A model generated the notes under the pieces. That model made no database searches, was not told the origin of the DNA, and saw only the letters and a program-made list of their open reading frames with translations. 64,000 nt of DNA from Thermodesulfobacteriota bacterium (GTDB lineage: Bacteria > Desulfobacterota > Binatia > Bin18), in NCBI GenBank assembly GCA_964291405.2, contig OZ219926.1:2400001-2464000 (forward strand), in the 5' to 3' direction. Position numbers and translations under genes: made by a program. This document shows positions 2,077 through 54,397 of this stretch, in pieces (the first letter of the stretch is position 1; each line of letters begins with the position of its first letter).

Positions 2077-2129
2077 AAAGAGTAAACGTGTCCAACCTTT
2101 TGTCTCTTTGGAGGACACGTTTACTCTTT
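2077..2129 (+). repeat. Short palindromic element, copy 1
   Basis: AAAGAGTAAACGTGTCC-19 nt-GGACACGTTTACTCTTT with perfect 17-bp arms, directly before the SD of the next gene. Confidence 0.95.
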
Positions 2130-2147
2130 ACAGAAGGAGGACCTGTT

Positions 2148-4556
2148 ATGCACGGCTTGGAAGGTGTTCGCGTATTGGAACTCGGCAATATGGTGTCTGC
2201 GGCGTATGCCACAAAGCTGCTGGCAGACCTTGGCGCCGATGTGATCAAAGTCGAAGAACCGGGTGGTGACTTGGCGCGAACCCGAGGCCCCTTTCCTCAA
2301 GGGCAGCCCGACCCAGAGCAGAGTGGCCTCTTTTTGTATTTGAATACCAATAAGCGCGGCGTGACCCTCGATATCCGCCAGGATGCTGAACGTCTGCGCA
2401 CCCTGATTGCGCAGACTGATGTGCTCATTCACAATTATGCTCCGCCGGCTATGGCCGAGCTCGGCCTCTCCTACGCGACGTTTCAGCAGGCGAATCCCAG
2501 CTTGGTGATGTGCTCGATCACCCCGTTTGGGCTGACCGGCCCGTATAAAGATTATAGAGCCTATGAGCTGAACCTAGCCCACGGGGGCGGCTGGGCCTGG
2601 CTGAGCCCTGGGGCCTCAGACTGGCCGGATCTACCTCCGCTCAAGGCTGCCGGCCACCAGGCCGACTTTCAGGGAGGACTGGCTGCGGCCATGACGAGTC
2701 TGGCCGCCTATGGCAAAGCCTACGAAACCGGCCAAGGTGAGCATATCGATCTTTCGATTCAGGAGTTTGTCGCCTCCTTCCTGGAACAAAACTTTGTCTA
2801 CTACTCCTATATGGGTCAGGTGGCGTCTCGGCTGGGCCGCCGCCTGATCTATCCCTGGGGCATGTATCAGTGTCAGGACGGCCTGATCTTTGTGGTGACG
2901 GTGGAGCAGGATCAATGGGAGCGCCTGGTTGATCTCATGGGGAATCCAGAATGGGCGAGTTGGGAAATATTCAAAGACCCCTTTGTCCGCGCCGAGAACT
3001 GGGATGTGCTCAAGACCTATCTCGACGAGTGGATGCAGGGCTGGACAGTCCAGGACCTCTTCGAGGCCGGCCAGGAGCGTCGGATCTGTTTTGCCCCTGT
3101 ATTGTCCATGGAAAGCATGGCCCAACAGGAACAGCTCAAAGCCCGCAATTTTTTTGTTGACGTGACCCACCCGAAGGCCGGGACACTGACCCATCTGGGC
3201 CCGCCCTACCAGCTCAAAGAGCCGTGGTGGGATATTCGCCGCCCGGCACCCCTGCTGGGCGAGCATAATGACGAGGTGCTGCGCGAAGCAGCCCCCCCGA
3301 CTCCGTCTCCCCAACCCCCAACCCCCGACACCAGCCTTCCCCTGGAAGGTCTGCGTGTCGTCGATTTTAGTTGGGCCTGGGCCGGGCCTTATTGTGCCCT
3401 ACAGCTGGCCCACCTGGGGGCAGAGGTCATTCGGGTTGAATCGCATGTGCGTCCCGACCTCGGACGACGTGTACCCATTTATCCAACCGGCATGGAGCCG
3501 AGCCTCAATCGCTCGGGCTATTTCAACCAATGGCACCAGGGCAAAAAGAGCACCCTGCTCAACTTGAGCAAGCCGGAAGCCATTCCCATCGTCACTGCCC
3601 TGATTGAGAAGTCCGACGTTGTGGTGGAGAACTTCGCAACCGGTGTAATGGAACGCTTGGGTCTCGGCTATGAGGAGCTGGCAGAGCGGAATCCGGCGCT
3701 GATCATGGCCTCCATCTCCGGCTACGGACATAGCGGACCACAAAAAAACTATATGGGCTACGGGCCAGCCATCGTGCCGCTGACCGGCCTGTCTTCGCTG
3801 ACCGGCTACCCTGGGCACGGTCCCCAGGAAGTCGGCATTTCGTATGGCGACCCGAATGGCGGTCTGAACGCCGCGGTGGCCATTACCGCGGCCGTGGCCG
3901 TGCGAAAACGGACGGGTAAGGGACAGCATATTGATGCCTCATTATGGGAAACCATGGCGGCGTTACTGGCGGAAGGCTGGATGGACTATGCCATGAATAC
4001 CACCCAGCCGCCGCGCATCGGCAATCGGGACCCGTGGATGGCTCCGCATAACTGCTTCCGCTGTGCCGGGCAGGAGACCGACCAAGATGAATGGGTCACC
4101 ATCGTCTGCGGGACGGATGAAGAATGGCAGGCCTTGTGCCAGGCCGTCGGGCAGGCCCACCTCAGTCAGGACACACGCTTTCGCACCGCAGCGGACCGCA
4201 AGGCAAACGAAGAGGAACTCGAACGCATCCTGACGGAGTGGACCAAAGAGCGAACGAAATGGGATGTGACTAAAACGCTCCAGGCCGTGGGTGTGGCCGC
4301 CTTTCCATCCATGAACAGCAAAGACTTGAGCGAGGACCCGCATTTGAGCGCGCGGGGCTTTTTTGCCCGCCTGCCGCATGCCGAGGTTGAGGTGCAGACC
4401 CATATCGGTATTCCGTGGCAGCTCACCGCCGCGCCAAACGGCGTCCGTTCCCCCGCTCCCCTCATGGGCCAGGACACTGAGTATGTGATGAAGGATCTGC
4501 TGAGGCATACTGACGAAGAAATTGCCGAACTCAAAGCCGCAGAAGTATTGTATTAG
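2148..4556 (+). CDS. Tandem-fused family III CoA-transferase (two CaiB/BaiF domains)
   Basis: Two 'LEGvRV...LGAdVIkVE' starts and two 'PAPLlG' ends, joined by a Pro-rich linker. AAGGAGG SD before the ATG at 2148. Confidence 0.9.
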   Translation: MHGLEGVRVLELGNMVSAAYATKLLADLGADVIKVEEPGGDLARTRGPFPQGQPDPEQSGLFLYLNTNKRGVTLDIRQDAERLRTLIAQTDVLIHNYAPPAMAELGLSYATFQQANPSLVMCSITPFGLTGPYKDYRAYELNLAHGGGWAWLSPGASDWPDLPPLKAAGHQADFQGGLAAAMTSLAAYGKAYETGQGEHIDLSIQEFVASFLEQNFVYYSYMGQVASRLGRRLIYPWGMYQCQDGLIFVVTVEQDQWERLVDLMGNPEWASWEIFKDPFVRAENWDVLKTYLDEWMQGWTVQDLFEAGQERRICFAPVLSMESMAQQEQLKARNFFVDVTHPKAGTLTHLGPPYQLKEPWWDIRRPAPLLGEHNDEVLREAAPPTPSPQPPTPDTSLPLEGLRVVDFSWAWAGPYCALQLAHLGAEVIRVESHVRPDLGRRVPIYPTGMEPSLNRSGYFNQWHQGKKSTLLNLSKPEAIPIVTALIEKSDVVVENFATGVMERLGLGYEELAERNPALIMASISGYGHSGPQKNYMGYGPAIVPLTGLSSLTGYPGHGPQEVGISYGDPNGGLNAAVAITAAVAVRKRTGKGQHIDASLWETMAALLAEGWMDYAMNTTQPPRIGNRDPWMAPHNCFRCAGQETDQDEWVTIVCGTDEEWQALCQAVGQAHLSQDTRFRTAADRKANEEELERILTEWTKERTKWDVTKTLQAVGVAAFPSMNSKDLSEDPHLSARGFFARLPHAEVEVQTHIGIPWQLTAAPNGVRSPAPLMGQDTEYVMKDLLRHTDEEIAELKAAEVLY

Positions 4557-4585
4557 ACAGGGGTTCGGGAAAAGAGGACCTGGCT

Positions 4586-8974: not shown

Positions 8975-9808
8975 ATGGGCAGACTGGATGGAAGAGTCGC
9001 CGTGATTACGGGCGGAGCCAGCGGTATTGGAGCTGCAACAGTTCGTCTGTTCGCCGCAGAAGGAGCCCGGGTTGTGGTGGCGGATATGCAGGAGGACAGG
9101 GGCCAGGAGATGGCGCGCGAGCTGGGAGACCAAGGCGCTTTTGTCCAGGTGAACGTGACCCAGGAGGCCGAGGTCAAAGCGGCCATTGAGACCGCGGTCG
9201 AACGCTGGGGCCGGCTAGACTGTATTTACAATAACGCCGGCTTTGGCGGTGCGCTAGGGCCGATCGAGAGCATCAGCGTAGAAGACTACGATATGACCTT
9301 TGATGTGCTGCTCAAAGGCGTGTTTCTCGGTATCAAGCATGCCGCGCCCATCATGAAAAAACAGCAGTCCGGCAGTATTATCAGTACCTCCAGCGCGGCC
9401 GGCGTAGAAGCCGGCATGGCGACCCACCTCTACAGTGTGGCCAAGGCGGGGGTGATTCATCTGACCAAGTCGGTCGCCCTGGAACTGGGTGAGTTCAATA
9501 TTCGCGCGAACTGCATCTGTCCGGGTGCGATTGTGACGCCCCTGGCCGTTGGTCGGCCGTCGCCAACGGACAAACAGGTGGCCGGTCTGCGCAAAGGCGC
9601 GGCCCACCTGCATCCTCTCGGTCGGGTCGGCGAGCCGGAAGAGATCGCCAAAGCCGCCTTATGGCTGGCCAGTGATGACGCGAGTTTTGTGACCGGTCAG
9701 GCCCTGGCCGTAGACGGCGGGATCACCGCCGGCCGGCCCTGGCGCGACCTGCCCGAATTTCATCGCACGCCCCATCCGATCCGGATGTACCGCGTACCGG
9801 AAAAGTAG
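8975..9808 (+). CDS. SDR family oxidoreductase
   Basis: TGGASGIG, NNAG and YSVAK motifs. AAGGAGG SD before the ATG at 8975. Confidence 0.92.
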   Translation: MGRLDGRVAVITGGASGIGAATVRLFAAEGARVVVADMQEDRGQEMARELGDQGAFVQVNVTQEAEVKAAIETAVERWGRLDCIYNNAGFGGALGPIESISVEDYDMTFDVLLKGVFLGIKHAAPIMKKQQSGSIISTSSAAGVEAGMATHLYSVAKAGVIHLTKSVALELGEFNIRANCICPGAIVTPLAVGRPSPTDKQVAGLRKGAAHLHPLGRVGEPEEIAKAALWLASDDASFVTGQALAVDGGITAGRPWRDLPEFHRTPHPIRMYRVPEK

Positions 9809-9945: not shown

Positions 9946-10410
9946 CTATGACAGCGCCTCAATCACCTCGGCAGGCGCCTGTACCAGCTCAATCAACACG
10001 CCCTCGCCACACAGCGGGAAGTCCGCATTACCCTTGGGGTGGATGAAACACACATCATAGCCGGCCGCGCCCTTGCGTATGCCGCCCGGCGTGAACCGCA
10101 CACCCTGCTCGGCCAGCCATTTTTCAGCCGCGTGCAGGTCATCGATCCACAGACCGATATGATTCAGCGGCGGGTCCTGGACCTTGGGCCGTTTCTCCGG
10201 GTCGATAGGCTGCATTAAATCCACTTCCAGTTTGAGTGGTCCCGAGCCAATCACCGCAATGTCCTCATCCACATTCTCGTTCTCGCTACGATAGTTGCCG
10301 CTCAGGCTCAGCCCCAGGGTATCGACCCAGAACTTCCGTAGCGGATTCTTATCCAGCCCGCCTACCGCGATTTGTTGAATCCCCAGCACTCTAAACGGTC
10401 GCTCACTCAT
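9946..10410 (-). CDS. VOC/glyoxalase family protein (methylmalonyl-CoA epimerase-like)
   Basis: QQIAVG...[10 protein letters not shown]...FIHPK...GVLIELVQ metal-binding VOC pattern. Start MSERPF at 10410. Confidence 0.85.
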
Positions 10411-10573
10411 TGTTTGCTTCCCTCGTATGCCATCAATATGGGGAGTTGTATCGGTTCCGGGAGGGGGGGACAATTGGGGAGGGTATTCGAGCTATCTAGG
10501 GGCTACTCAGCCATCTATTTTTGTTGACAAGCATTGGGAATCTTTTCAGCATAGAGAAATGGGCAATGACACG

Positions 10574-12037
10574 ATGAGTGAAAAAGACGGGAAAGAACCG
10601 GAATTGGTTCGTGACAACGGTAATGTGTCTCTCAATGACCTGCAAGCCGCCGACCAGACTGATCTTATCCGTATGGTGGTAACTGTCATTGAAAACGGGG
10701 ATATCCCCGAAGCACTACGCCTAAACACCTTCTTGGGGATAGCGCAGGAACCTGCCTATCGCGCTCTCCTATTAACCTGCATCAAAGAGAGTCAGTGGTG
10801 GAGAGACCCTACCGATGGATATGGTCCGTATGGAAGCTTCGATGAGTGTGCCAAGGAGGTCGCGGGCCTCAGTCCCTCCTCCTATGGCGATCTCATCCGC
10901 ACCTGGCAATGGTGGCGGGACAAACATAAAACTGCTGAGGAATGGATGCGCCACTGTCTATTGATTCGCTGGACTGCGTGCCGAGAGATACGGTTCGCCG
11001 ATATCCCGCCTGACAAGATTGCTGCCGTGGTGGAGGGTATTTCGCAAAAGGGCCTAAAAACAAAGGAGCTGCCCGAGTACCTTCGGCGATATAATCCGAA
11101 CTATCGCTCGAACCGGGAGCAGAAGACAAATTCAATACAGAAAGGACCAAAACCCAAACAAAAGGAAACATCATCTCCAGATAGATCATATTCTATAGAC
11201 GATATCCTGCGTGACGGCTGCTTTCTTGAGCGAACCAAACTGGAAAAAATTCTCGAACGCCTCTACGACAAGAAAAATCTAATCCTTCAAGGGCCACCCG
11301 GCACCGGGAAAACTTGGTTGGCCAAACGCCTTGCCTTTGCGCTTATAGGACAGCGAGATGACAGCCGGGTACGAGCCGTGCAGTTTCACCCAAACCTGTC
11401 ATATGAAGACTTCGTGCGTGGATACCGGCCTACGAGAGACGGCAAACTCAGTTTGGCTGATGGTCCATTTCTTGAGGTAGTGAATACGGCCAAAGACTCC
11501 TCTGCCTCCTATGTCGTCGTCATTGAAGAAATCAATCGTGGAAATCCAGCCCAGATTTTTGGCGAGATGTTGACCCTTCTGGAAGCTGACAAACGAACTC
11601 AGGCAGAAGCACTGGAGTTGAGCTATCGACGGACAGACGGCGAGCGTGTCTATATTCCCGATAATGTGTACGTGATTGGCACCATGAACGTTGCAGACCG
11701 TTCACTTGCTCTGGTTGATCTGGCGCTACGGCGACGTTTCGCGTTTATAGACCTGGAACCTGTCTTTGGAAAACCTTGGCGCGACTGGGTGCACAACCGA
11801 TGCTGTGTTGATCTGGACATCCTTACTGACATCGAAAAGCGAATCCAATCATTAAACGATGAGATATCCGCTGATACCAGCCTTGGTTCTCAATTTCGCA
11901 TTGGACACAGCTATGTCACCCCTCCGTCTGGAACATCTATTGACGATGGCCGGAACTGGTTTCGACAGGTAGTGGCAACAGAGATCGGGCCCCTGCTTGA
12001 TGAGTATTGGTTTGAGGCACCCGACAAAGCTAGGTAG
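10574..12037 (+). CDS. mcrB: McrB-family AAA+ GTPase with a non-canonical N-terminal domain
   Basis: GPPGTGKT, VQFHPNLSYEDFV, IEEINRGN, GTMNVADRS (McrB NxxD motif), ALRRRF and IGHSY. Start uncertain (10559 or 10574). Confidence 0.9.
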   Translation: MSEKDGKEPELVRDNGNVSLNDLQAADQTDLIRMVVTVIENGDIPEALRLNTFLGIAQEPAYRALLLTCIKESQWWRDPTDGYGPYGSFDECAKEVAGLSPSSYGDLIRTWQWWRDKHKTAEEWMRHCLLIRWTACREIRFADIPPDKIAAVVEGISQKGLKTKELPEYLRRYNPNYRSNREQKTNSIQKGPKPKQKETSSPDRSYSIDDILRDGCFLERTKLEKILERLYDKKNLILQGPPGTGKTWLAKRLAFALIGQRDDSRVRAVQFHPNLSYEDFVRGYRPTRDGKLSLADGPFLEVVNTAKDSSASYVVVIEEINRGNPAQIFGEMLTLLEADKRTQAEALELSYRRTDGERVYIPDNVYVIGTMNVADRSLALVDLALRRRFAFIDLEPVFGKPWRDWVHNRCCVDLDILTDIEKRIQSLNDEISADTSLGSQFRIGHSYVTPPSGTSIDDGRNWFRQVVATEIGPLLDEYWFEAPDKAR

Positions 12038-12066
12038 GCCAGACAGCGCTTACTCGAAGGATTCTA

Positions 12067-13179
12067 GTGGCGACACCGATAGCAGCGGATACTGGTCAGG
12101 TTGGCCGGATTCCGGTGCGGAATCTCTGGCTATTGATGCTGTATGCGTCCAGTCTTTTTCGGTCTAGAGATCGCGAGAAAATCACGATTGAAGAGAATCC
12201 AGATGATATCCCCGATCTCGTGGCCGAAATCCTGACATTCCTGGTTGAGCGCCGTCTGAGGCGCAATCTGAGCTTCGGATACCAGCCTAAAGACGCGATC
12301 CTTGGCCGAGTTCGGGGACGCATAAACCTGTTGTATACGGAACGGCATCAGCTCTTGGACCGGGGCAGAGTTTCCTGTCGATTTGAGGAATTTCTCGTTG
12401 ATACTCCACGCAATCGCTACGTTCGTGCGGCGCTAGAAAAGATTGCAAAAATCGTTCGGCGTACCAACCTTGCTGACCGATGTAGTACTCTTGCCACGCG
12501 CTTGAGGCGAATGGGCGTCAGCGGAGAGAAACCCGACCGAAGTGAGATATCCGCTGACCAGTTTGGCCGTCACAATACCGACGATCGACAAATGGTGGCC
12601 GCAGCCCAGCTTGCTTTCGAATTGGCACTGCCCACTGAAGAGGCTGGCCAGCAGTCTCTTTTCATGCCAGATAGGGAAGAGAAGTGGGTGAGGCGTCTGT
12701 TCGAGAAGGCGGTCTCGAGCTTTTATGACGTTGTGCTGTCCGGCTCGGGCTGGCGGGTCCATCCTGGAAAGAGACTTCAGTGGCCTCAAGGTCACAAAAC
12801 CGCCGGAATCGACGACATATTGCCATCCATGCAGACCGACATTGTTTTGGATCACGTTTCCACGAGGAGTCGCATCGTCATCGACACAAAATTCACTGCT
12901 ATTGTTACTCAGGGACGGTACAGAAAAGAGGCTTTACGCAGCGGGTATCTTTATCAGATGTATGCGTATCTGAGGTCCCAGGAGGACAATGGAGACCCGC
13001 TGGCAGCCAGTGCAGCCGGCCTTCTGTTACATCCAGCAATTGGTGAGATGGTGGATGAGTCGGTGGTGATTCAAGGCCATAAAATACGGTTCGCAACCGT
13101 GGATCTTGGAGCCGAAGCAGGGGAAATACGAAGACAACTGCTGCAAGTGGTGGGGCTTTCCACGGCGTCTTATACTTGA
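12067..13179 (+). CDS. mcrC: McrC restriction endonuclease subunit
   Basis: IPVRNLWLLMLYA N-terminus, LFEKAV, and a PD-(D/E)xK core (MQTDIVL...IDTKF...LYQMYAY), directly downstream of mcrB. Confidence 0.9.
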   Translation: MATPIAADTGQVGRIPVRNLWLLMLYASSLFRSRDREKITIEENPDDIPDLVAEILTFLVERRLRRNLSFGYQPKDAILGRVRGRINLLYTERHQLLDRGRVSCRFEEFLVDTPRNRYVRAALEKIAKIVRRTNLADRCSTLATRLRRMGVSGEKPDRSEISADQFGRHNTDDRQMVAAAQLAFELALPTEEAGQQSLFMPDREEKWVRRLFEKAVSSFYDVVLSGSGWRVHPGKRLQWPQGHKTAGIDDILPSMQTDIVLDHVSTRSRIVIDTKFTAIVTQGRYRKEALRSGYLYQMYAYLRSQEDNGDPLAASAAGLLLHPAIGEMVDESVVIQGHKIRFATVDLGAEAGEIRRQLLQVVGLSTASYT

Positions 13180-21842: not shown

Positions 21843-21892
21843 AAAGAGTAAGCGTGTCCTCCCAGGCAAAAAAGCTGGACACGTTTACTCTT
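21843..21892 (-). repeat. Short palindromic element, copy 2
   Basis: AAAGAGTAAGCGTGTCC-17 nt-GGACACGTTTACTCTT. Confidence 0.93.
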
Positions 21893-21998
21893 CACCGCAG
21901 ACCCCGGCAGGCCGCTCCCATAAGCAGGTGCCCTAGGTGCCTCATGCTTTGGGGCCACCGGGTTGCCCGACCAACGCCCGGTGCGTGGCTCTTCGCTC

Positions 21999-22054
21999 AA
22001 AGAGTAAACGTGTCCAGCATCTACATGTCTTATTGGAGAACACGTTCACTCTTT
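21999..22054 (+). repeat. Short palindromic element, copy 3
   Basis: AAAGAGTAAACGTGTCC-22 nt-GAACACGTTCACTCTTT. Confidence 0.93.
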
Positions 22055-22185
22055 CAAGACTGTCCTAGACCCGCTCCGTCTTTTTTACAAGAGAGGAAGC
22101 AAAAAATCTGCGTGAGGAATGCAATACGTGGAGAATGCTGATAGGCTATGCGCGCAAAATATAAGGAAGATGAGGAGGTATATAC

Positions 22186-23594: not shown

Positions 23595-24143
23595 ATGCGA
23601 CACAGACTCTCCAACCTTGGCAGACCTTCCAGTGTTTTTCCATCCAACGCGGAGAATGGCTTTACCCTTATCGAGCTGATTCTGGTCCTCGTCATTATCA
23701 GCATCGCCTTTGCCATTGTCGCCCCTGCGGTCGGGAATCGGTTTGGCGGCAGTGACCCGAAGCGGACGGCGGCACAGTTACGAACCACGCTGGAACTCTT
23801 ACGACTGCGGGCGCTCACGGATGGTATAGAACAGCGTCTCGTCATTGACCCCGAAGACAATCAGTATTGGCAGGAGTCCGGGCGCCAGGTTGCGGCTCAG
23901 GATGACAGCGAGGAGGAGTCCGACCACGAAGACGAGCAAATCACGTCCTCCGATGAAGACATCCAACTCTCAGCCACGAGTCTATGGGTGCGGGAGGAGG
24001 GAGAAGTCGAGTTCCGCTTTTATCCGGATGGCACAAATTCTGGCGGGGAGATCATCATAGAACAGCAACGGGGAGCGAATGAGATCGCGTATACTATCGC
24101 GCTCAATCCGCTGCTTGGGACAGCCACCGTCCGCAAAGAGTAA
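23595..24143 (+). CDS. gspH: Type II secretion minor pseudopilin GspH
   Basis: G|FTLIE class III signal and FYPDGTNSGG motif. The stop codon lies within repeat copy 4. Confidence 0.85.
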   Translation: MRHRLSNLGRPSSVFPSNAENGFTLIELILVLVIISIAFAIVAPAVGNRFGGSDPKRTAAQLRTTLELLRLRALTDGIEQRLVIDPEDNQYWQESGRQVAAQDDSEEESDHEDEQITSSDEDIQLSATSLWVREEGEVEFRFYPDGTNSGGEIIIEQQRGANEIAYTIALNPLLGTATVRKE

Positions 24144-24190
24144 ACGCGTCCTCCGATGTGATATAGAAATGCAGGACACGTTTACTCTTT
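24135..24190 (-). repeat. Short palindromic element, copy 4 (overlaps gspH stop)
   Basis: AAAGAGTAAACGCGTCC-22 nt-GGACACGTTTACTCTTT. Confidence 0.95.
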
Positions 24191-24255: not shown

Positions 24256-24738
24256 ATGAAAAAAGAAGACCGGAAGTGTCAGACACGCCATTGGAGCAAA
24301 GAGGGGTTTACCCTCCTGGAAATTATGATCGCGCTCTCCATCCTGGCGGTCGGCCTGGTGGCCGTGCTGGAACTCTTTGCCGGCAGTCTCCGCCTCACCG
24401 GAAAAGCCTCCCACCGCACCCAGGCGGTCATTCATGCTCAGAATGTGATGGACCGGTTCTTTGCCCCGGATTTCCTGGAAGATGGAGAGGACAGCGGAGA
24501 GCTACCGGACGGCTTTTTTTGGCGGGCACGGGTGCAGAAAATCTTTCCGGATGAAACCGAAGAAGAGGCTGCGGAAAGGGAAAACGATGAGCTGGGTGGC
24601 CAAGCGTCTCTGCTGCACATCAAGGAGATCATGGTCAGCATCGGCTGGGAGGAGGGGGAGAGCCACCGAAGTTTCGAGCTGCGTTCCATGCGCCTCATGT
24701 ACGAGGATACGGACAGCCTCGAGGAGGGGAGGCGTTAA
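24256..24738 (+). CDS. gspI: Type II secretion minor pseudopilin GspI
   Basis: G|FTLLEIMIAL signal; positioned between gspH and gspJ. Start uncertain (24193 or 24256). Confidence 0.8.
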   Translation: MKKEDRKCQTRHWSKEGFTLLEIMIALSILAVGLVAVLELFAGSLRLTGKASHRTQAVIHAQNVMDRFFAPDFLEDGEDSGELPDGFFWRARVQKIFPDETEEEAAERENDELGGQASLLHIKEIMVSIGWEEGESHRSFELRSMRLMYEDTDSLEEGRR

Positions 24739-25429: not shown

Positions 25430-26491
25430 ATGAAGAGTAAACGTGTCCTCCAATCAGACAAAAAAGCTGAACGCGTTTACTCTTTGCGGAACGAGCGCGG
25501 CGTTATCTTGATTGTGGTTGTGTGGGCGCTGATGGTGCTCATGGTTGTGGCGATTGAGCTCGGCCGGACCGCCCGGGTGGAGGGGCTGAGTACCGATGTC
25601 TACCAACAGGAGGTCAAAACCTATTATTTAGCCCTCGCCGGGTTGAACCGTGCCCTCTACCAGCTCATCCGGACGAGCCAGCAAGGCCGAACGCGGGATA
25701 CCCGAGACGACGATCGGCTGGGCCCACGCGACCGGCTGAGCGATGATGAGCCAGAGGAATGCCCGGACCTCTGGCTACTGGGCGATGGCCAGTGGAGAAA
25801 CGAACCCTATGGCGAGGGTGGGTACCAGGTCCGGGTCAGTGACGAGAGCGGCAAAATCAATATCAACCAGGCGGATGAGATTATTTTACGCCAGACCTTT
25901 ACCAATCTGGACTTTGATCCGGACTTCGGGGATGCCTTGGCCGATGCCATCCTCGACTGGCGCGACCCGGACCCCTTAGAGCGGCTGAATGGGGTTGAGA
26001 GTGACTATTACCTGGCCCAGGACATTTCCTATCCGGCCAAGGACGGACCGCTCGACACGATTGACGAACTCCTGCTGGTCCGTGACGTCACCCAGAACCT
26101 CTTCTACAACACCCTGAACGAAGTGTTCACGGTGTATGGCAATGCGCGCAGCGGCAATATGGCCAATGCACAAACCGCAAACGCCCTCGTACTCCGGGCC
26201 ATACAGGGGGTTGATGCGGAAACCGCGGAGGAAACGATCCGGCAAAGGCGCGAAAACTGCGGGGAAGAGTTCTTGGACGCGACCGCAGCACGGGGGGGTC
26301 TGCCCACGATTGTCACTATAGAGAGCGTCGGCTATCTGGACACCGGACGTATCACCCGCCGGCTGGCCGGAGTGATTGACCGCACAGACAACCAGTCCTA
26401 TCGGGTGCTACGCTGGCATGACCGTCTGCCTTCACAGGCCCTCCCGCTCAGAAAAGACGATTTTGAAGACGAAGAAGAAGGGTGGTTCTGA
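25430..26491 (+). CDS. gspK: Type II secretion minor pseudopilin GspK
   Basis: RG|VILIVVVW (no E5), DESGKININ, AILDWRDPD and DELLLV motifs. GGAG SD before the ATG at 25430. Confidence 0.88.
   Translation: MKSKRVLQSDKKAERVYSLRNERGVILIVVVWALMVLMVVAIELGRTARVEGLSTDVYQQEVKTYYLALAGLNRALYQLIRTSQQGRTRDTRDDDRLGPRDRLSDDEPEECPDLWLLGDGQWRNEPYGEGGYQVRVSDESGKININQADEIILRQTFTNLDFDPDFGDALADAILDWRDPDPLERLNGVESDYYLAQDISYPAKDGPLDTIDELLLVRDVTQNLFYNTLNEVFTVYGNARSGNMANAQTANALVLRAIQGVDAETAEETIRQRRENCGEEFLDATAARGGLPTIVTIESVGYLDTGRITRRLAGVIDRTDNQSYRVLRWHDRLPSQALPLRKDDFEDEEEGWF
25433..25485 (-). repeat. Short palindromic element, copy 5 (in-frame inside the gspK leader)
   Basis: AAGAGTAAACGTGTCC-20 nt-GAACGCGTTTACTCTTT, translated as KSKRVLQSDKKAERVYSL. 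Confidence 0.9.
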
Positions 26492-33133: not shown

Positions 33134-33184
33134 AAAGAGGGAACGTGTCTTTCAATAGACTAAAGATGGACACGTTTCCTCTTT
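33134..33184 (-). repeat. Short palindromic element, copy 6 (between ureA and ureC)
   Basis: AAAGAGGGAACGTGTCT-17 nt-GGACACGTTTCCTCTTT; abuts the ureA stop. Confidence 0.92.
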
Positions 33185-33487: not shown

Positions 33488-33499
33488 ACCCGTTCTCCG

Positions 33500-33552
33500 A
33501 AGAGGAAACGTGTCCAGCATCTACACGCTGTTGGAGGACCCGTTTCCTCTTT
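33500..33552 (+). repeat. Short palindromic element, copy 7 (between urtE and ureA)
   Basis: AAGAGGAAACGTGTCC-20 nt-GGACCCGTTTCCTCTTT. Confidence 0.92.
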
Positions 33553-39454: not shown

Positions 39455-39490
39455 TCGACTTCTCCTTTTCGTTATGCGGTTACTACATCC

Positions 39491-41061: not shown

Positions 41062-41077
41062 CGGCAAGATTATTGCT
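41062..41077 (+). promoter_or_regulatory. Sigma54 (-24/-12) promoter for ureBGDEF
   Basis: CGGCAAGATTATTGCT has GGCA...TTGCT with exact spacing. Confidence 0.65.
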
Positions 41078-41135
41078 CTAAGAGTCCGTATATGGCAGAC
41101 AGAAGTGAGAGTCATGAAAGATACGAGGGGTGTAA

Positions 41136-41531
41136 ATGCCGACCGAAAAAACGGCTTCCACGCTGATTCCTGGGGAAATCCTTCCAGCTGAAGGTTCAAT
41201 CGTCTTGAATGCCGGGCGACCCGTGCAGTCCGTCACCGTTCTCAATACCGGAGACCGACCGATTCAGGTAGGTTCGCATTATCACTTCTTCGAAGCCAAT
41301 CGAGCGTTGCGTTTTCCTCGGGCCACAGCCTTTGGTCTTCGGCTTGATATTCCAGCCGGTACGGCTGTTCGCTTTGAGCCTGGAGAAGAGAAAGTGATAC
41401 AACTGGTCCCGTTCGGCGGACAACGGACGGTCTTAGGCTTGAACGGTTTGACTGAGGGCAATACAGAGAATGCAACCGTTCGGCAACGGGCGCTCCAAAA
41501 GGCGTCAGAGCAGGGCTTCCTGAAAGAGTAA
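41136..41531 (+). CDS. ureB: Urease subunit beta
   Basis: [24 protein letters not shown] and [15 protein letters not shown] motifs. Stop codon inside repeat copy 8. Confidence 0.97.
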
Positions 41532-41577
41532 ACGTGTCCTCCGATAAACACGCAAATGCTGGACACGTTTCCTCTTT
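41523..41577 (-). repeat. Short palindromic element, copy 8 (overlaps ureB stop)
   Basis: AAAGAGTAAACGTGTCC-21 nt-GGACACGTTTCCTCTTT. Confidence 0.95.
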
Positions 41578-41623
41578 TCCTCAGACGAAGAAACTGAGCC
41601 GGCTTAACGGTAGATGAGGCTGT

Positions 41624-42241: not shown

Positions 42242-42249
42242 TTCCCCCT

Positions 42250-43200: not shown

Positions 43201-43216
43201 GAAAGGGAGGCCATGC

Positions 43217-43741
43217 ATGCTACGCATCAGTCATCGTCTCGGGAATATCCATCAGGATTCCGACCTTGCCGCTCGGGTCACGCAGTGGGAGCAGACTCAA
43301 CAACTGGAAGAAGTGACCATTAACGAGCGAGAGGCACAGAAGAGTCGACTTCGTCTCCAGACCTCGACAGGTCAGGACCTGGGACTCGTCCTGCCCCGTG
43401 GGACGGAAATCGCGGATGGCGACGTCTTTGCCTTCACCGATAGAGAAGGGGGCCTTGTCGTCCACCTCGCTCTTCAGGAGGTCATGGTGCTGACGCTGCG
43501 CCCAGGACTGCCCCCGCACGAACAACACCACTGGCTGGTTCGTCTCGGTCATGTGCTGGGCAATCAACACTGGCCGATCGCGAATGTCGACGACACGGTC
43601 CTTGTGCCGGTCACCCTCGACCGAGCAGTGATGGAAACCGTCCTGCGGACCCATCATCTTCTGGATCAATTTACGATTCGGTATGAGCGACGTTCCTGGC
43701 CGAAAGGCACCCAGAGCACATGGACGACACCGCATTCATAG
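43217..43741 (+). CDS. ureE: Urease accessory protein UreE
   Basis: KSRLR...G.DLG...DGD, LGHVLGNQHW motifs; no His-rich tail. Confidence 0.85.
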   Translation: MLRISHRLGNIHQDSDLAARVTQWEQTQQLEEVTINEREAQKSRLRLQTSTGQDLGLVLPRGTEIADGDVFAFTDREGGLVVHLALQEVMVLTLRPGLPPHEQHHWLVRLGHVLGNQHWPIANVDDTVLVPVTLDRAVMETVLRTHHLLDQFTIRYERRSWPKGTQSTWTTPHS

Positions 43742-44403
43742 CAGCCTTACAGCTGACGGACTCGTTCTTTCCCTCCGGCGCCGTCACCCTGTCTCACGGC
43801 CTGGAAACCTTTCTCAGTGTCCAGTCCGAGGCTATCGACCTGTCTCAGCTCCTGCACGATTATCTCGAAAGAAAAATCGCTCCCTGTGATCTAGTTGCCT
43901 ATGCGCACGCATATTGCGCCGCAGCAGAGGGAGATATTGAACGTTTGCAACAGATCGACCGCTATTTGCATGTTTCGCTCCTGCCGCAAGAGCTGCGGCA
44001 GGGCTCGCTGCGTTCGGGTCGGGGAACTCTGGAAACCCTGCGACGCGTAGTCGAGGAGCCACTCTTCCAGACCTTTCTGGCTGGCGTCAACGCGGGCAAG
44101 AGTAATGGTCATCTCCCCATTTGCCTGGCTCTCCTCCACTGCATATGGCGTATCCCCCAGCGCAGAGGCGGGTGTATGCTGCTGTACGCCTTCATGGTGA
44201 ACTTTCTCAGTGCCGCTATCCGCTTGGGCTGTCTTGGGCATCGGGAAGCCCAAGGGCTGCTCATTCATTTCCGGCCGCAGGTGATGCCACTGGTGGAGCA
44301 AGCGCTGGACAAACCGCTCGAAGAAATCGGCGCGTTCGTTCCGATCGCCGATATCCGAGCGATGCAACACGCCCATCTGTCTGTCCGACTCTTTAGTAGC
44401 TAG
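43720..44403 (+). CDS. ureF: Urease accessory protein UreF
   Basis: LQLTDSFFPSG..SHGLE at the N-terminus and H....RLFSS at the C-terminus. Confidence 0.92.
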   Translation: MDDTAFIAALQLTDSFFPSGAVTLSHGLETFLSVQSEAIDLSQLLHDYLERKIAPCDLVAYAHAYCAAAEGDIERLQQIDRYLHVSLLPQELRQGSLRSGRGTLETLRRVVEEPLFQTFLAGVNAGKSNGHLPICLALLHCIWRIPQRRGGCMLLYAFMVNFLSAAIRLGCLGHREAQGLLIHFRPQVMPLVEQALDKPLEEIGAFVPIADIRAMQHAHLSVRLFSS

Positions 44404-44466: not shown

Positions 44467-44517
44467 AAAGAGGGAACGTGTCTTTCAATAGTCTGGAGTT
44501 GGACACGTTCCCTCTTT
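44467..44517 (-). repeat. Short palindromic element, copy 9 (abuts tRNA 5' end)
   Basis: AAAGAGGGAACGTGTCT-17 nt-GGACACGTTCCCTCTTT. Confidence 0.93.
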
Positions 44518-47068: not shown

Positions 47069-47172
47069 ACATAAATACTAATTGAATCTATATTAGTATT
47101 TATGTAGAATATAACTATTGATAACAACTCTTAAATACTAATTTTCAGTAAATCAATAGTAAATTAGTATTT
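47069..47172. promoter_or_regulatory. Two AT-rich inverted-repeat operators upstream of fic
   Basis: ACATAAATACTAAT-N9-ATTAGTATTTATGT and AAATACTAATTT-N16-AAATTAGTATTT. Confidence 0.55.
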
Positions 47173-47179: not shown

Positions 47180-48526
47180 ATGAAAATTCCTGCCACTCCG
47201 CCAACCCTAGAGGAGATACTCTCGAAGTCAGACAAAAAGGCTCGCATGAGGCGGTTGGTGGAGATTTTTGCGAAAGGAATTTCTTCCTCCCCACAGGGCA
47301 AATATCGGCACTGGGAAACAGTGAAGAGACTCCAACCTCCAAACGGATTCTCTTCGAGAGAGTGGTGGGCAGGGATTAAATTTGCCCGCTTCCAGACACG
47401 GAGGGAAGTTCCTCTGCTACAGGACAAAGACGGGAAACCGTTTATATATTCCCTCGCTGATCCAGTACTGGAACTCCTGCATGAGATCGATCGAGACGTA
47501 AGCGGCAGACTAACCTCTCGCGACCAGATTACAAACCCAAAAATGAGGGACCGCTATATAGAACATTCTCTCATGGAGGAAGCCATCACCTCGAGTCAGC
47601 TTGAAGGCGCATTGACGCCGCGCGAAGTCGCAAAGGATATGATTCGCTCGGGGCGAGCCCCCAGTGATCAGAGCGAACTGATGATCCTCAATAATTACCA
47701 GGCAATTCGCCTGGTAGATCAATGGAAAGAGCAGCCACTCACTCGTCAACTGCTCTTCACCATACATGAGACGCTAATCCGCGGTACGCTAGAGAAGGGT
47801 ACTGAGAGGAACTATCTCAGAGCCCCCAGTGACCACATCGCGGTCTACGATGAGCGTGATAACACTCTCGTGTATGAGCCCCCGCCCGCCGAACAGCTTG
47901 CAAGTCGAATGGCTGCCATGTTCGACTTTGCGAATCAAACCCAGACAGGAGCCTTTCTTCATCCAATACTGAAAGCCATTATTCTCCATTTCTGGCTCGC
48001 TTATGACCACCCCTTTCTTGATGGCAATGGAAGAGCAGCAAGGGCACTCTTTTACTGGTCTGTACTCTCGCAGGGGTTCTGGATATTCGAGTTTCTTTCG
48101 ATTTCCAGCATTATTCGAAAGGCACCGGCAAAATACGTCCGATCTTTCCTCTATACGGAAACAGACGAGAATGACCTGACGTATTTTATTCTGGCCCAAC
48201 TTCGAGTCATCCAGCGAGCCATCAACGAATTATACGCCTATCTTGACAAGAAGGCCGACGAGATTCAGCAAACTGAGCAACTTCTCCGGTCTTCTATTGT
48301 TATCAACCCTCGCCAAGTCGCCCTGCTCGGGCATGCGCTCCACCACCCAGGGACGCGCTATACGATCGCATCACATAAGAAGAGCCAGGGAGTAACCTAC
48401 CAAACGGCACGGACCGACCTGCTTGGTCTTGCGGATCGAAAACTGCTCGGCAGGGCAAAAGCCGGGCGCGCTTTCGTCTTCATCGCCCCTCGCAACCTTC
48501 CAGAGAGGCTGCAAGCTCTTTCCTGA
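47180..48526 (+). CDS. Fic family protein (class II-like, C-terminal wHTH)
   Basis: HPFLDGNGRAAR catalytic motif, SSQLEG inhibitory motif and a VTYQTARTDL HTH. Confidence 0.92.
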   Translation: MKIPATPPTLEEILSKSDKKARMRRLVEIFAKGISSSPQGKYRHWETVKRLQPPNGFSSREWWAGIKFARFQTRREVPLLQDKDGKPFIYSLADPVLELLHEIDRDVSGRLTSRDQITNPKMRDRYIEHSLMEEAITSSQLEGALTPREVAKDMIRSGRAPSDQSELMILNNYQAIRLVDQWKEQPLTRQLLFTIHETLIRGTLEKGTERNYLRAPSDHIAVYDERDNTLVYEPPPAEQLASRMAAMFDFANQTQTGAFLHPILKAIILHFWLAYDHPFLDGNGRAARALFYWSVLSQGFWIFEFLSISSIIRKAPAKYVRSFLYTETDENDLTYFILAQLRVIQRAINELYAYLDKKADEIQQTEQLLRSSIVINPRQVALLGHALHHPGTRYTIASHKKSQGVTYQTARTDLLGLADRKLLGRAKAGRAFVFIAPRNLPERLQALS

Positions 48527-49864: not shown

Positions 49865-51187
49865 CTATAGTCCACCAACAAAGCGACCGGGGTTCAAAAT
49901 ACCGTTGGGATCCAGGGTTTCTTTGAGTCGCTGCATAAGCGGAAACGCTTTGCCGACACTACCCCAGACATTCGCCCGTTCCTTGAGCGCCGCAGGGATC
50001 TCTTCCACAACGACAAATCCGTTGCTACCGGTTGCGTGGACACGTATCCAGTCAAAAAGGGACAAAATCTGGTCGTCGGGGACAGCCTCTCCTTCAAAAG
50101 CCGCGTACAGGATACCATTCCCGGCCCGGGCCAATAAACGGACTGGAGCATGGCGACGCTGGGATTCTGATTCCAGGTCGGCACAGAATGCCGCGAGCTG
50201 GGTTGGCTGAAGGCTGACTTTACACCGAAGCGTCGCCGGGCCGGACACAGGAAAATCCCGGAGGGCCTGAGAGAGCGTCTGCGCCTCGTCGACACTCAGC
50301 TCCTCAATATCACCTGCGTCATCCCCAAGAACATCACGCAGGTGATTCCGCTGGTCGTCGATTTCTTCCTGAATTCCAGCAAAGCCGACGAAAAGACGAT
50401 AGGCGTCTCCTCCTTGATCTCCGGAGGACGAAAGCGGAGAAAAATTGGCCAGTTCCAGGAAAAAGGGCTGCATGTCCGAGCCCGTCAATTTCAGCGCGGC
50501 TTCGCCAGCTTTTTCAGCCGAGGAGAATGTCAAGGCGAGCGTTGTTTGGGCTTCAGGTCGAGGACGGATCATAAAAGTCGCCTCGACGATAACGCCGAGC
50601 GTCCCAAACGACCCACAGTAGAGCTTTGGCAGGTCATAACCGGCCACGTTTTTCACGACTTGTCCACCACCCTTAATCAGCGTCCCATCCGCGCGCACGA
50701 CTTTTATGCCGATCAGAAAATCGCGGACCGTGCCTTGAGAGAAGCGGGCGGGACCGTTAAGATTGGCAGCAATGACTCCACCGACCGTGGCTCGCTCAGG
50801 ACACGGCGGGTCGAGCGGCAGCCATTGGCCATTTTCTCCAAGAATAGCCTGGAGTTGGGCCAGAGACATGCCGGCCCCAACGGTAATGGTCATATCGGTC
50901 GGCTGATAGTCGACAATCGCGCTCAGCCCTGTCGTACACAGCGCCTGCTCGTATCGTTTCGGTACGCCACCCAGGTGGAGAAACGCACCCTGTCCCACCG
51001 GGCTTATGGCGCAGCCGTTTTCATTTGCCTCTTTTAGCAGGCGAGAGACCTCTTCAATCGACGCGGGGTAGACTACCGTCTCGGGTGCTTGCCCGTCGAT
51101 GACGAACTGGGTGGACGGCGGATGACCTGCGGCCTGCGTCAAAGGAGTGAACGTGTCCTCCAGTGGTTTAGAAGAGATGCTGGACAC
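49865..51187 (-). CDS. glcE: Glycolate oxidase FAD subunit
   Basis: GGQVVKNVAGYDL.KL..GSFGTLG and DPNGILNPGRF motifs. SD and GTG start lie inside repeat copy 10. Confidence 0.87.
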   Translation of the reverse strand: MSSISSKPLEDTFTPLTQAAGHPPSTQFVIDGQAPETVVYPASIEEVSRLLKEANENGCAISPVGQGAFLHLGGVPKRYEQALCTTGLSAIVDYQPTDMTITVGAGMSLAQLQAILGENGQWLPLDPPCPERATVGGVIAANLNGPARFSQGTVRDFLIGIKVVRADGTLIKGGGQVVKNVAGYDLPKLYCGSFGTLGVIVEATFMIRPRPEAQTTLALTFSSAEKAGEAALKLTGSDMQPFFLELANFSPLSSSGDQGGDAYRLFVGFAGIQEEIDDQRNHLRDVLGDDAGDIEELSVDEAQTLSQALRDFPVSGPATLRCKVSLQPTQLAAFCADLESESQRRHAPVRLLARAGNGILYAAFEGEAVPDDQILSLFDWIRVHATGSNGFVVVEEIPAALKERANVWGSVGKAFPLMQRLKETLDPNGILNPGRFVGGL

Positions 51188-51199
51188 GTTTACTCCTTT
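51141..51199 (-). repeat. Short palindromic element, copy 10 (supplies glcE SD and start)
   Basis: AAAGGAGTGAACGTGTCC-23 nt-GGACACGTTTACTCCTTT, with an extra base in both arms. Confidence 0.93.
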
Positions 51200-53122: not shown

Positions 53123-53228
53123 ATGATTTCCTCGGGAAAGGCGTCAGCTAGGAGTCTGCGAGCTTGTGCCGGAGAAGTCAACAGCAGGGTGTTGACAATT
53201 GGTCCGCTCTCGCGTTGTTTTACCCGCT

Positions 53229-54308
53229 ATGAAAAAGCGTGTCGCCGTTGTTGGGGCAACCGGGATTGCGGGTCAGCAATTCCTCGTTGCGCTTCAGGAC
53301 CATCCCTGGTTTGAGGTTGCTTTGCTGGCCGCGTCAGAGCGCTCAGCGGGCAAAAGCTATGCAGAAGCTATCCGTGATCCCAAAACCGGGGCGCGGAGAT
53401 GGTGGTGTGAGGAGGAGCCCCCGCAGTCCGTGCTGCCGCTTCCGGTCCACGAAGCATCGTCTCTGAACCTGACGGGAGTCGATCTCGTCTTTACAGCCGT
53501 CGAATCAGGACCGGCACGGGAACTGGAGCCGGTGTACGCCAAAACAACGCCGGTGGTCAGCACGGCCTCGGCATTTCGGCAAGAGGCGGACGTTCCCCTG
53601 CTTATTCCGGGAGTCAATCTGGAGCATATCTATCTGATTGATACCCAAAGGAAAAATCGCGACTGGCAGGGCTATATTGCCACGCAGCCCAACTGTACCA
53701 CCATAGGTCTGGCGATTACCCTCCGACCGCTGTTTGACCAATTCGGTCTCAGAAAAGTCATCATGACCTCTATGCAGGGGCTGTCCGGGGCTGGTCGCTC
53801 GCCGGGTGTGATCGGAATGGACACCATAGACAACGTTATTCCCTTTATTGCCGGCGAGGAGGAGAAGGTCGAACGGGAAGGGCATAAAATTCTTGGCCGC
53901 CTCGACAATGGAGCCATTACCCCCGCCAATTTTCTGGTGAGTGCAACGTGTACGCGTGTACCGGTTCTTGAAGGCCATACCGAGGCTCTGTTGGTCTCCA
54001 TGGACACCTCCTGCTCGGTTGAGGATGTCCGGGCAGCAATGGTCGGGTTTGGCAAAGAGTTTATTGAAATGGGCCTGCCCTCTTCTCCGCAGCATATGAT
54101 CATCGTGCATGATGACCCATTTCGGCCCCAGCCACGCTTGGACCGTGATGCCGAAGACGGCATGGCAACATCGGTGGGTCGTCTGCGAGAGGATCAGACG
54201 CTTGAGAATGCCGTGAAATATCTTCTTGTCAGCCACAATACCAAGATGGGAGCGGCCAAGGGAGCGGTCCTGACGGCGGAGTATCTGTATCAGCAGGAGT
54301 ATGTGTAG
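53229..54308 (+). CDS. asd: Aspartate-semialdehyde dehydrogenase (archaeal/fungal-like subtype)
   Basis: GATGIAGQ, ASERSAGK, PNCTT, MQGLSGAG, RVPVLEGH and PQPRLDR motifs. Confidence 0.93.
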   Translation: MKKRVAVVGATGIAGQQFLVALQDHPWFEVALLAASERSAGKSYAEAIRDPKTGARRWWCEEEPPQSVLPLPVHEASSLNLTGVDLVFTAVESGPARELEPVYAKTTPVVSTASAFRQEADVPLLIPGVNLEHIYLIDTQRKNRDWQGYIATQPNCTTIGLAITLRPLFDQFGLRKVIMTSMQGLSGAGRSPGVIGMDTIDNVIPFIAGEEEKVEREGHKILGRLDNGAITPANFLVSATCTRVPVLEGHTEALLVSMDTSCSVEDVRAAMVGFGKEFIEMGLPSSPQHMIIVHDDPFRPQPRLDRDAEDGMATSVGRLREDQTLENAVKYLLVSHNTKMGAAKGAVLTAEYLYQQEYV

Positions 54309-54344
54309 TTCCGTACGCTCGTCTTGATACAGTACACCGCAGAG

Positions 54345-54397
54345 AAGAGTAAACGTGTCCAGCATCTGCGTGTGTATTGGAGGACACGTTTACTCTT
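54345..54397 (+). repeat. Short palindromic element, copy 11
   Basis: AAGAGTAAACGTGTCC-21 nt-GGACACGTTTACTCTT, ending 1 nt before an ATG. Confidence 0.95.

Follow-up and report, generated by a model that had tools for sequence, protein, structure and literature searches.

The stretch of DNA analyzed here, hereinafter the window, comprises 64,000 nucleotides (nt) from a Thermodesulfobacteriota bacterium (GTDB lineage Bacteria; Desulfobacterota; Binatia; Bin18), namely positions 2,400,001 to 2,464,000 of the forward strand of contig OZ219926.1 (assembly GCA_964291405.2). Among genes for CoA metabolism, pilin-like proteins, urease and DNA replication, it contains 11 copies of a short palindromic element that is the subject of this work. 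An initial annotation, made from the sequence alone, had described these copies as oriented hairpins sitting at gene boundaries, and both inspection of the sequence and a covariance model confirm all 11 at the positions given there; trimmed to their conserved ends, the copies are 51-58 bp long, with a mode of 54 bp.

The repeat family is readily detected in the window by several patterns. A strict two-arm pattern yields 3 exact matches compared to 0 expected. A less strict one detects 8 of the 11 copies, compared to 0 matches expected from 100 shuffles, and a 10-mer from the arm core, with at most one mismatch allowed, gives 26 matches compared to 3.6 expected. The covariance model, which was built from the 11 oriented window copies and run on the window with filters off, identified exactly 11 places with scores of 62-74 bits, the next best place scoring only 14 bits. 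The opposite strand of each copy scores 41-49 bits, so that the correct strand is better by about 22-31 bits; given this clear difference, the earlier count of 4 copies on the plus strand and 7 on the minus strand is correct. The copies are listed below in the order of their position (scores are those of the covariance model; SD, Shine-Dalgarno; ORF, open reading frame), together with two sites that are empty in the window and one remnant; L numbers denote loci from the genome scan described in the next section.

2077..2129, plus strand: copy 1 (72.2 bits), between the stop of ORF 332-2032 and the SD site and ATG (2148) of a CoA-transferase gene, in the same sense as both neighbouring genes
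21843..21893, minus strand: copy 2 (64 bits), in the spacer of two divergent genes, 42 nt ahead of a minus-strand class II aldolase gene (start 21801)
21999..22054, plus strand: copy 3 (74.2 bits), in the same divergent region as copy 2, 131 nt upstream of an acyl-CoA dehydrogenase start (22186)
22156..22157, no strand: empty site, with a copy in L112:457-510 (CBDEWE01); gap 0, flanks 93% identical
24135..24190, minus strand: copy 4 (71.9 bits), an arm of which provides the TAA stop (24141-24143) of the pilin-like gene 23595-24143
24290..24300, no strand: remnant AAAGAGGGG, at a site that holds a full copy in L015 (JAJEFA01)
25432..25485, minus strand: copy 5 (67.8 bits), after the stop of a pseudopilin gene (25424)
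33134..33184, minus strand: copy 6 (65.4 bits), filling exactly the spacer from the ureA stop (33185-33187) to the SD site and start of ureC (33117), 16 nt from the latter
33499..33552, plus strand: copy 7 (67.3 bits), between a urea ABC ATPase gene (stop 33569) and ureA (start ATG 33487, minus strand), antisense to the neighbouring genes and 11 nt from the ureA start; the ureA SD site follows
41523..41577, minus strand: copy 8 (70.9 bits), an arm of which provides the TAA stop (41529-41531) of ureB; ureG lies 46 nt downstream
44467..44517, minus strand: copy 9 (62.2 bits), after ureF (stop 44403) and abutting the 5' end of tRNA-Arg(CCT)
51141..51198, minus strand: copy 10 (69.8 bits), between two FAD-linked oxidase genes
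54344..54398, plus strand: copy 11 (71.5 bits), 35 nt after an asd-like gene (stop 54308), with the ATG (54399) of the next membrane-protein ORF abutting it
57628..57629, no strand: empty site, with a copy in L049 (OZ243979)

The arms of the element are 17-bp terminal inverted repeats (TIRs) of the form AAAGAG[T/G]AAACGTGTCC ... GGACACGTTT[A/C]CTCTTT that enclose a loop of about 20 nt (17-23 nt). When oriented, the loops share the consensus AGCATCT..TG.T.TATTGGA, and the previous description of their cores as unique does not hold. The loop edges AGC and TGGA are conserved like the arms (in a set of 139 distinct copies, C22 is found in 139 of 139 and G46 in 136 of 136). Folding indicates that these edges form a conserved 2x2 internal loop, with A.A and G.G mismatches on one strand and T.T and C.C on the other, which is closed by a C-G pair and prolongs the stem. 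The predicted RNA hairpins are strong, with energies of -20 to -29 kcal/mol and z-scores of -5.6 to -8.2, and the DNA hairpins reach about -16.5 kcal/mol. The element has no coding capacity of its own.

All 11 copies lie in short spacers beside starts, stops or the tRNA, so that the reported location at gene boundaries holds for the window. Copies 5, 10 and 11 adjoin or contain possible start sites. At copy 5, the adjoining ATG (25431-25433) is in frame through the element into a GspK-like gene, with an alternative TTG start at the far end of the copy, and the element may thus encode an N-terminal extension. Copy 10 carries an extra G in both arms (AAAGGAGT / ACTCCTTT), and the motif AAGGAG thereby arises 5 nt in front of an in-frame GTG (51187). 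Apart from this GTG inside the copy, the gene 49865-51187 has no in-frame start candidate but a TTG at the far end of the copy, and the GTG is the predicted start site. In copy 9, both arms carry a GGG/CCC variant.

Presence, absence and inversion in related genomes

A genome scan, the seeds of which required an exact arm, identified at least 128 stretches in at least 20 assemblies, all of them, among the matches listed, metagenome-assembled genomes of Candidatus Binatia/Binatota; the genome to which the window belongs is not among the listed stretches. Several of these loci are orthologous to the window at 84-92% identity. Together, the window and the listed loci constitute a sample of 1.6 Mb, or about 1-2% of the 20 genomes. 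In this sample, a hidden Markov model of the 11 copies found 252 places that correspond to 220 distinct copies (205 full length, 121 of exactly 54 nt), which group into 158 orthologous sites. In the window, there is on average one copy every 5.8 kb; in the relatives, where the seeded centres of the loci were left out of the count, the spacing is one per 14.3 kb (99 copies in 1.416 Mb). Such densities would imply hundreds of copies per genome. The host genomes are 4-5 Mb in size and belong to apparently free-living bacteria. A search of Rfam gave no match to the element at the gathering score, the best match at the element with E <= 10 being mir-5984 (15.9 bits, E = 2.6); a blastn search of a plasmid collection with copy 11 gave no match, and a literature search found no paper that links Binatia or Binatota with palindromic, REP (repetitive extragenic palindromic) or MITE (miniature inverted-repeat transposable element) repeats.

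The family is not uniform. A diverged sub-family has AATGAG...CTCATT ends, both arms having changed together (L010:756-772, L059:16547-16563, L024:10527-10580). Another sub-family, with the loop CCGCATTGAGGGCTGTTTGGA or a similar one, is repeatedly found between the same two other short palindromes (…GCCGCTACGCGGCAC; CCCTCC..GAGGGG…), namely in L106, L124, L104 and L107 (each at 299-352) and in L034 at 9362-9416 and 9999-10053. This arrangement suggests either a composite, nested repeat or a preferred palindromic target.

To compare orthologous sites, both flanks of each copy were placed in the other genomes, which resulted in 217 copy-by-genome comparisons. The element is present in the same orientation in 137 of these and inverted in 29; the site is empty in 39, and the remaining 12 are of other or unclear type. 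At least one empty orthologue exists for 30 of the 158 sites. Junctions were inspected for 29 of the 39 empty comparisons, and in the cleanest cases (pairs #13, #22, #30, #32, #51 and #90) the exact AAAGAG...CTCTTT unit is inserted, with no duplicated bases. The initial annotation had noted the lack of a consistent target-site duplication, and none was found at the filled/empty junctions; nor is there a direct-repeat signal in the flanks of 204 copies. Across the same 204 copies, information content falls from 1.3-2 bits to less than 0.35 bits exactly at AAAGAG and CTCTTT. Thus, the element is gained or lost as a whole unit with sharp ends and without target-site duplication.

The flanks of these 204 copies do not reveal a fixed target word, positions -3 to -1 containing at most 0.1 bit each. 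They do show a weak symmetric signal, with G/C at -5/-4 and +4/+5, A at only 2% at -6 and T at only 2% at +6. Given that the GC at +4/+5 is already there in several of the empty sites, this signal looks like a target preference rather than a part of the element. Some non-orthologous copies within one genome differ by only 0-2 bases, with single-base differences between L022:15156 and L002:10597 and between L058:9998 and L058:13845. Near-identical copies at unrelated sites imply recent amplification from near-consensus sources. Taken together, these comparisons show an element that is mobile or was mobile until recently.

Orthologous loci were present for copies 1-8 of the window. The site of copy 4 is empty in L015, L016 and L091, with a clean gap and no duplicated bases, and in this empty allele the pilin-like gene is six codons longer and has its own stop. 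Filled orthologues in the same orientation were found for copy 1 (L066 and L070), copy 3 (L015/L016 and L112), copy 7 (L056 and L015) and copy 8 (L056), and the orthologue of copy 5 in L015 is identical. Copy 6 has the same orientation in L056; in L015, direct alignment shows the whole element inverted, including its asymmetric arm variants. Similarly, copy 2 and its orthologues in L112 and L015 have loops of opposite orientation, with collinear flanks in the direct alignment. The remnant at 24290..24300 is probably a deletion scar.

Such inversions are also seen in the wider sample. Among 89 orthologous pairs, 16 are flipped, and flips are seen at 10 of the 43 sites observed in two or more genomes. 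In element orientation, the flipped pairs share 87% identity, compared to 70% as reverse complements, and variants of the loop that are specific for a site are kept. Accordingly, the orientation assigned to each copy is real, as the strand scores show, but it is not a fixed property of the site, because orthologous copies differ in related genomes. The two arms also change together, as the extra G in both arms of copy 10 had already indicated: 96.5% of the stem cells are paired across the 139 distinct copies, and none of 500 shuffles reaches the observed values. The main polymorphism is at stem position 7, with U-A in 90 copies, G-C in 42 and no pairing in 4, and at one and the same site, T-A in one genome can correspond to G-C in another (for example, T-A in copy 1 compared to G-C in L070; several other pairs behave likewise). 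Thus, a copy, once placed, can invert between its arms, and the arms evolve in concert.

Both processes probably result from template switching or recombination between the arms, and on this reading neither the flips nor the arm covariation are evidence for a selected RNA structure. There is a precedent in chloroplast spacers, where hairpin-associated small inversions between closely related lineages are described (PMC2903610). In both cases, the loop between short inverted repeats is flipped while the flanks stay collinear; the parallel is one of mutational process and not of element family, and serves here only as a precedent for the way in which in-place inversion can arise. The A.A and G.G mismatches escape symmetrisation, which suggests that they matter, perhaps for recognition by a mobilising enzyme.

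Relation to genes and other features of the window

The gene context of the copies in the wider sample was called by a flank-frame method. In 27 of the 136 flanking genes that read into the element (11 of 52 on one side and 16 of 84 on the other), the upstream gene is terminated by the TAA of AAAGAGTAA, as with copies 4 and 8 in the window, and in a further 20 of the 136 the stop lies within 3 bases of the element. The proposal that the element is being recruited into expression signals is thereby borne out for stop codons; recruitment as a start or SD site (copies 5, 10 and 11) is plausible. Relative to transcription, 6 of the window copies are sense and 5 antisense, and in co-directional gene pairs of the wider sample there are 43 antisense and 25 sense sites. 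Divergent pairs (22 sites) outnumber convergent ones, which are the rarest context (8 of 156 sites). The run of T at the end of the element is only 3 bases long and is part of the stem, and a terminator scan of positions 21000-40999 flagged none of the 6 copies located there as terminator-like. With mixed orientation, more divergent than convergent sites and no terminator-like copies among these six, one regulatory role for all copies does not emerge. The patterns fit a compact genome, in which insertions into short spacers land beside signals and only the harmless ones survive.

Many flanking frames in the wider sample run straight through the element. A copy was considered intragenic if the frame stayed open across it and codon usage scored positive to its left and right. 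By this measure, in-frame read-through was found for 21 copies at 17 of the 158 sites; no copy of the window clearly qualifies. Among the ORFs scanned against Pfam, 13 of 17 gave hits, with domains that flank or span the insert. The genes with inserts include those for GyrB, MnmG, MnmE, a MiaB-like radical-SAM enzyme, an MrpA-like antiporter subunit, a family III CoA-transferase, MoxR and others. Protein alignments of filled and empty orthologues show exact insertions of 18 residues in otherwise conserved sequence. In GyrB, the insert RGNVSSNRHADAGHVSSL lies between ...PFTFSVK and DTALTLG..., directly before a conserved C-terminal block and in a stretch without an aligned counterpart in solved GyrBs; it is present in one and absent in two of three related genomes. 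Escherichia coli MnmG (3cp2) aligns with a clean gap of 18 residues at the insert, and the CoA-transferase insert falls in a region that is gapped relative to the best solved homologue. The intragenic insertions are thus derived and tolerated, and they lie in variable regions of the proteins. The likeness in behaviour to Rickettsia palindromic elements (RPEs) that had been suggested from the window is therefore stronger in the relatives, with their in-frame inserts of 18 residues in gyrB, mnmG, mnmE and other genes.

Several other features of the window deserve mention. The urease genes are split (31399-44403): ureA (33185-33487) and ureC (31399-33117) are on the minus strand with no ureB between them, next to a urea-type ABC transporter (33569-39454), and ureB (41136-41531) is on the plus strand, 8 kb away, with ureG, ureD and ureF. 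Copies 6, 7, 8 and 9 punctuate this cluster. The only Rfam matches in the window are a tRNA and 5_ureB_sRNA, the latter (86 bits, 32667-32965, plus strand) antisense within ureC and accompanied by a promoter-like site at 32984-33011 (plus strand); this match may reflect the conserved urease coding sequence rather than a real antisense RNA. The urease/transporter cluster is flanked by two minus-strand ORFs without a Pfam hit, 29884-31263 and 39491-40777 (459 and 428 aa, respectively). L056 has the same pair of ORFs, and at 77-84% DNA identity each ORF of the window also matches the opposite member of that pair.

Elsewhere, a McrBC-type restriction pair (10427-13179; an AAA_5 ATPase and a McrC-like protein) is located among metabolic genes, and AT-rich nested inverted repeats at 47069-47172 (ACATAAATACTAAT / ATTAGTATTTATGT and others), which are unrelated to the hairpin element, lie immediately upstream of a gene for a Fic-domain protein (47180-48526). 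Close to the end of the window are dnaA (59543-60886), dnaN (61199-62350) and gyrB (from 62427), and G+C content drops from about 0.57 to 0.47-0.52 in the last 8 kb. Considering the inverted TTATCCACA-type DnaA boxes in the AT-rich dnaA-dnaN spacer (61003-61067), the window probably contains the chromosomal replication origin.

Origin of the element and comparison with known repeat families

We consider it likely that all 11 copies represent a single family of small mobile elements, selfish and non-autonomous, that is restricted, within the sample analyzed, to a clade of Candidatus Binatia. The initial annotation had proposed a non-autonomous mobile hairpin of the REP/MITE kind and had named, as one observation that would count against it, identical site occupancy in every relative, without any empty allele. 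The empty alleles found here, including that of copy 4, favour the mobile hairpin, which is further supported by the near-identical copies at unrelated sites, the sharp boundaries, and the lack of both coding capacity and a nearby transposase. Under this scenario, an enzyme encoded elsewhere would act on the DNA hairpin and move the element; the leading candidate, in line with a tentative suggestion of the initial annotation (HUH/RAYT), is a single-strand (HUH/Y1) transposase of the RAYT or 'TIRYT' type, because a hairpin with conserved mismatches and insertion without target duplication fit single-strand chemistry. The designation 'TIRYT' refers, in the relevant excerpt of the source, to tyrosine transposase genes that are flanked by long inverted repeats, some of them with moderately abundant repeat families (PMC3733652). 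Copies survive at places of little harm, namely in short operon spacers, at gene ends, where the TAA of the arm can become the new stop, and in frame within variable loops of proteins.

Several results weigh against this interpretation, among them those on the mobilising enzyme. As the initial annotation had stated, there is no transposase in the window: a Pfam search of 52 window ORFs detected no transposase domain, and 20 ORFs between closely spaced copies turned out to be housekeeping genes only. Within the 1.6-Mb sample, an all-against-all megablast of the loci found no long multi-copy repeat within a genome, and a fuzzy search for solo arms found no arm pair around a larger segment, although it did detect 9 degenerate or truncated copies. 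Searches with E. coli K-12 RayT (phmmer and tblastn) found no homologue among 14,207 six-frame ORFs of this sample, that is, of about 1-2% of the 20 genomes; the best match (phmmer E = 0.23) was rejected as a protein with an EcoEI R C-terminal domain according to Pfam. On inspection, neither strand of the element consensus carries a GTAG or CGTC tag. There is no replication-strand bias (25 compared to 26 copies in three genomes and the window, assuming that the terminus lies opposite the origin), although in-place inversion would erase such a bias, so that an original one could be hidden. The remaining adverse points concern the copies themselves. Co-directional pairs show the weak excess of antisense sites given above. 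Some empty sites are ragged or contain remnants (pairs #80, #90 and #97), so that a part of the presence/absence pattern reflects loss, not gain. Finally, orthologous copies diverge by 6.5% in the arms and 12.1% in the loop, compared to 18.5% at third codon positions of the flanking genes (77 pairs), which could indicate constraint or function, that is, selection, or else homogenisation between copies; this comparison is biased low because resemblance to the consensus was the basis on which copies were detected, and the scan required an exact arm in its seeds.

The most serious rival to mobility as the main explanation is that the copies are host-serving signals in operons that are kept by selection, either as RNA (mRNA stability or processing, tuning of translation) or as DNA (binding of gyrase or of a nucleoid protein, a role proposed for E. 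coli REP/BIME), mobility being only their origin. The location of all window copies beside starts, stops or the tRNA, the stability of the RNA hairpins, the conservation of orthologous copies beyond that of third codon positions, the near invariance of the loop edges and the retention of most copies across species (166 of 217 comparisons filled) all agree with such a role. We nevertheless regard it as improbable. Orientation relative to transcription is close to random both in the window and in the wider sample; copies flip in place, so that a strand-specific RNA motif is not maintained; and they also occur in coding sequence, divergent promoter regions and at tRNA ends, so that no single role fits. 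Moreover, 30 of the 158 sites are empty in a close relative, the measure of conservation is biased by the way in which the copies were found, and concerted arm change is equally expected from hairpin-templated mutation. A fossil family that no longer moves, with presence and absence caused by deletion only and similarity maintained by gene conversion, would account for the remnants or ragged junctions at some empty sites (pairs #80 and #97), the degenerate or truncated copies, and the failure to find a transposase in the window or in the ORFs between copies, or a RayT homologue in the 1.6-Mb sample. It is hard to reconcile with the intragenic inserts, which are clearly derived (present in GyrB in one of three related genomes, absent from E. 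coli MnmG), with the copies at unrelated sites of one genome that differ by 0-2 bases, and with the several empty sites that are exact and leave reading frames intact, so that this explanation appears very unlikely.

Even less credence can be given to the two readings in which each copy is a regulatory device of a familiar kind. Bidirectional intrinsic terminators or attenuators would be suggested by a long, stable hairpin flanked by AAA and TTT; yet there are only three T, all within the stem, the loops are 17-23 nt long, none of the 6 scanned copies was flagged, copies are found within gyrB, mnmG and mnmE as well as in the spacer of a tightly coupled gene pair (ureA-ureC), and convergent gene pairs are the rarest context, all of which makes such a function extremely improbable. 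Least credible of all is a role of the copies as operators, with the palindromic arms bound by one dimeric transcription factor. The half-sites are indeed perfectly symmetric and conserved, and several copies are near gene starts, but the density implies hundreds of operators per genome, copies are located between co-transcribed genes, at the 3' ends of genes and inside them, and the whole 54-bp unit, including the loop, is gained or lost as a block. The neighbours, among them urease, pilin, CoA metabolism, gyrB and tRNA-modification genes, form no coherent regulon.

A more far-reaching version of the mobile, selfish element deserves consideration, although we find it rather doubtful as it stands. 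The element could be the substrate of a not yet recognised hairpin-specific system of single-strand DNA transposition, with a design adapted to life inside genes. The 54 nt would correspond to 18 codons, four of the six frames would be free of stops in the G-variant, and a gene read in a different frame would be ended safely by the TAA; the enzyme would recognise the element by its A.A/G.G mismatch motif. If this is true, the element would be a continuing source of variation in length and sequence in the essential proteins GyrB, MnmG and MnmE, and each inversion in place would exchange the residues encoded by its middle part.

Within the literature searched, this is the first interspersed repeat family described for Candidatus Binatota, a phylum known only from metagenome-assembled genomes. 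In-frame palindromic elements are best known from Rickettsia (the original paper on RPEs is said to be that of Ogata et al. 2000 in Science), where they are tied to reductive genome evolution. The Binatia family provides a second clear case of in-frame palindromic DNA in essential genes, in apparently free-living bacteria with genomes of 4-5 Mb, so that the phenomenon looks more general. For genome annotation, the copies mark operon spacers, mislead the calling of start codons, given that ORFs extend through them, and explain indels of 18 residues in conserved proteins. The filled, empty and flipped orthologous triplets represent a natural dataset for hairpin inversion and arm symmetrisation, and the family is a test case for what moves TIR-bearing elements that leave no target duplication.

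The comparisons with known families that follow rest on the relevant excerpts of the cited papers. MITEs such as Correia, ERIC and Chunjie are, like the Binatia element, small, non-autonomous, bounded by TIRs and located between or occasionally inside genes, and in both cases copy number varies between relatives (PMC10969869). MITEs, however, descend from insertion sequences whose terminal repeats they share, and they duplicate their target site; here, no such parent and no duplication were found in the 1.6-Mb sample, and 54 bp is at or below their usual size range (PMC10969869). REPs and REPINs share with the Binatia element the high copy number, the hairpin, the lack of target duplication and a mostly intergenic, sometimes intragenic location in operons (PMC3733652, PMC3337134, PMC3116915). 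Further shared properties are the capacity to provide flanking ORFs with stop codons, vertical inheritance with persistence in related species, and conserved hairpin mismatches that may serve recognition by an enzyme (PMC3733652). REPs are 20-40 bp long, with stems of 5-13 bp and a terminal GTAG (or CGTC) (PMC3733652), whereas the Binatia element is 54 bp long, with 17-bp arms and a 20-nt loop, and has neither tag. In addition, a REPIN is a doublet of individually palindromic REPs, whereas the arms of the Binatia element are not palindromic in themselves, and REPs favour co-directional and convergent gene pairs, in contrast to the predominance of divergent over convergent pairs here (22 and 8 sites). 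Elements derived from IS200/IS605 (PATE-like) are located 3' of a fixed target of 4-6 nt, with a replication-strand bias, and neither property was found in the copies analyzed here.

Closer parallels are found in two other groups. The short mobile repeats (SMRs) of Haloquadratum walsbyi also have prominent TIRs, lack target duplication and show no similarity to transposons in their genome (PMC3119063), and their mobilisation was called enigmatic by the authors who reported them (PMC3119063). SMRs differ in being archaeal, about 110 bp long and possessed of strong target preferences (PMC3119063), compared to only a weak flank signal here. RPEs, too, are palindromic interspersed repeats that are non-coding and have no known transposase (PMC10969869, PMC3733652). 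Like the Binatia element, they occupy intergenic positions and, with unusual frequency, also in-frame positions in unrelated housekeeping genes, to which they add a peptide, and the proteins with RPE inserts are not destroyed (PMC10969869); in-frame intragenic REPs are reported in several species at a lower frequency (PMC3733652). The same behaviour, in-frame insertion into unrelated, intact genes, is observed here at 17 of 158 sites. RPEs are about 100-150 bp long, reside in obligate intracellular alphaproteobacteria and have a CGTC end (PMC3733652), and this description sets them apart from the Binatia element of 54 bp (51-58) with its AAAGAG/CTCTTT ends. Thus, the Binatia element fails the tests that define REPs (no terminal tag) and MITEs (no duplication and no parent insertion sequence in the sample) and behaves like RPEs, with their in-frame inserts, and like the Haloquadratum SMRs, which have inverted repeats but make no duplication. 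The family is a previously undescribed one within a known class, the small, non-autonomous, palindromic selfish repeats to which REPs, MITEs and RPEs belong.

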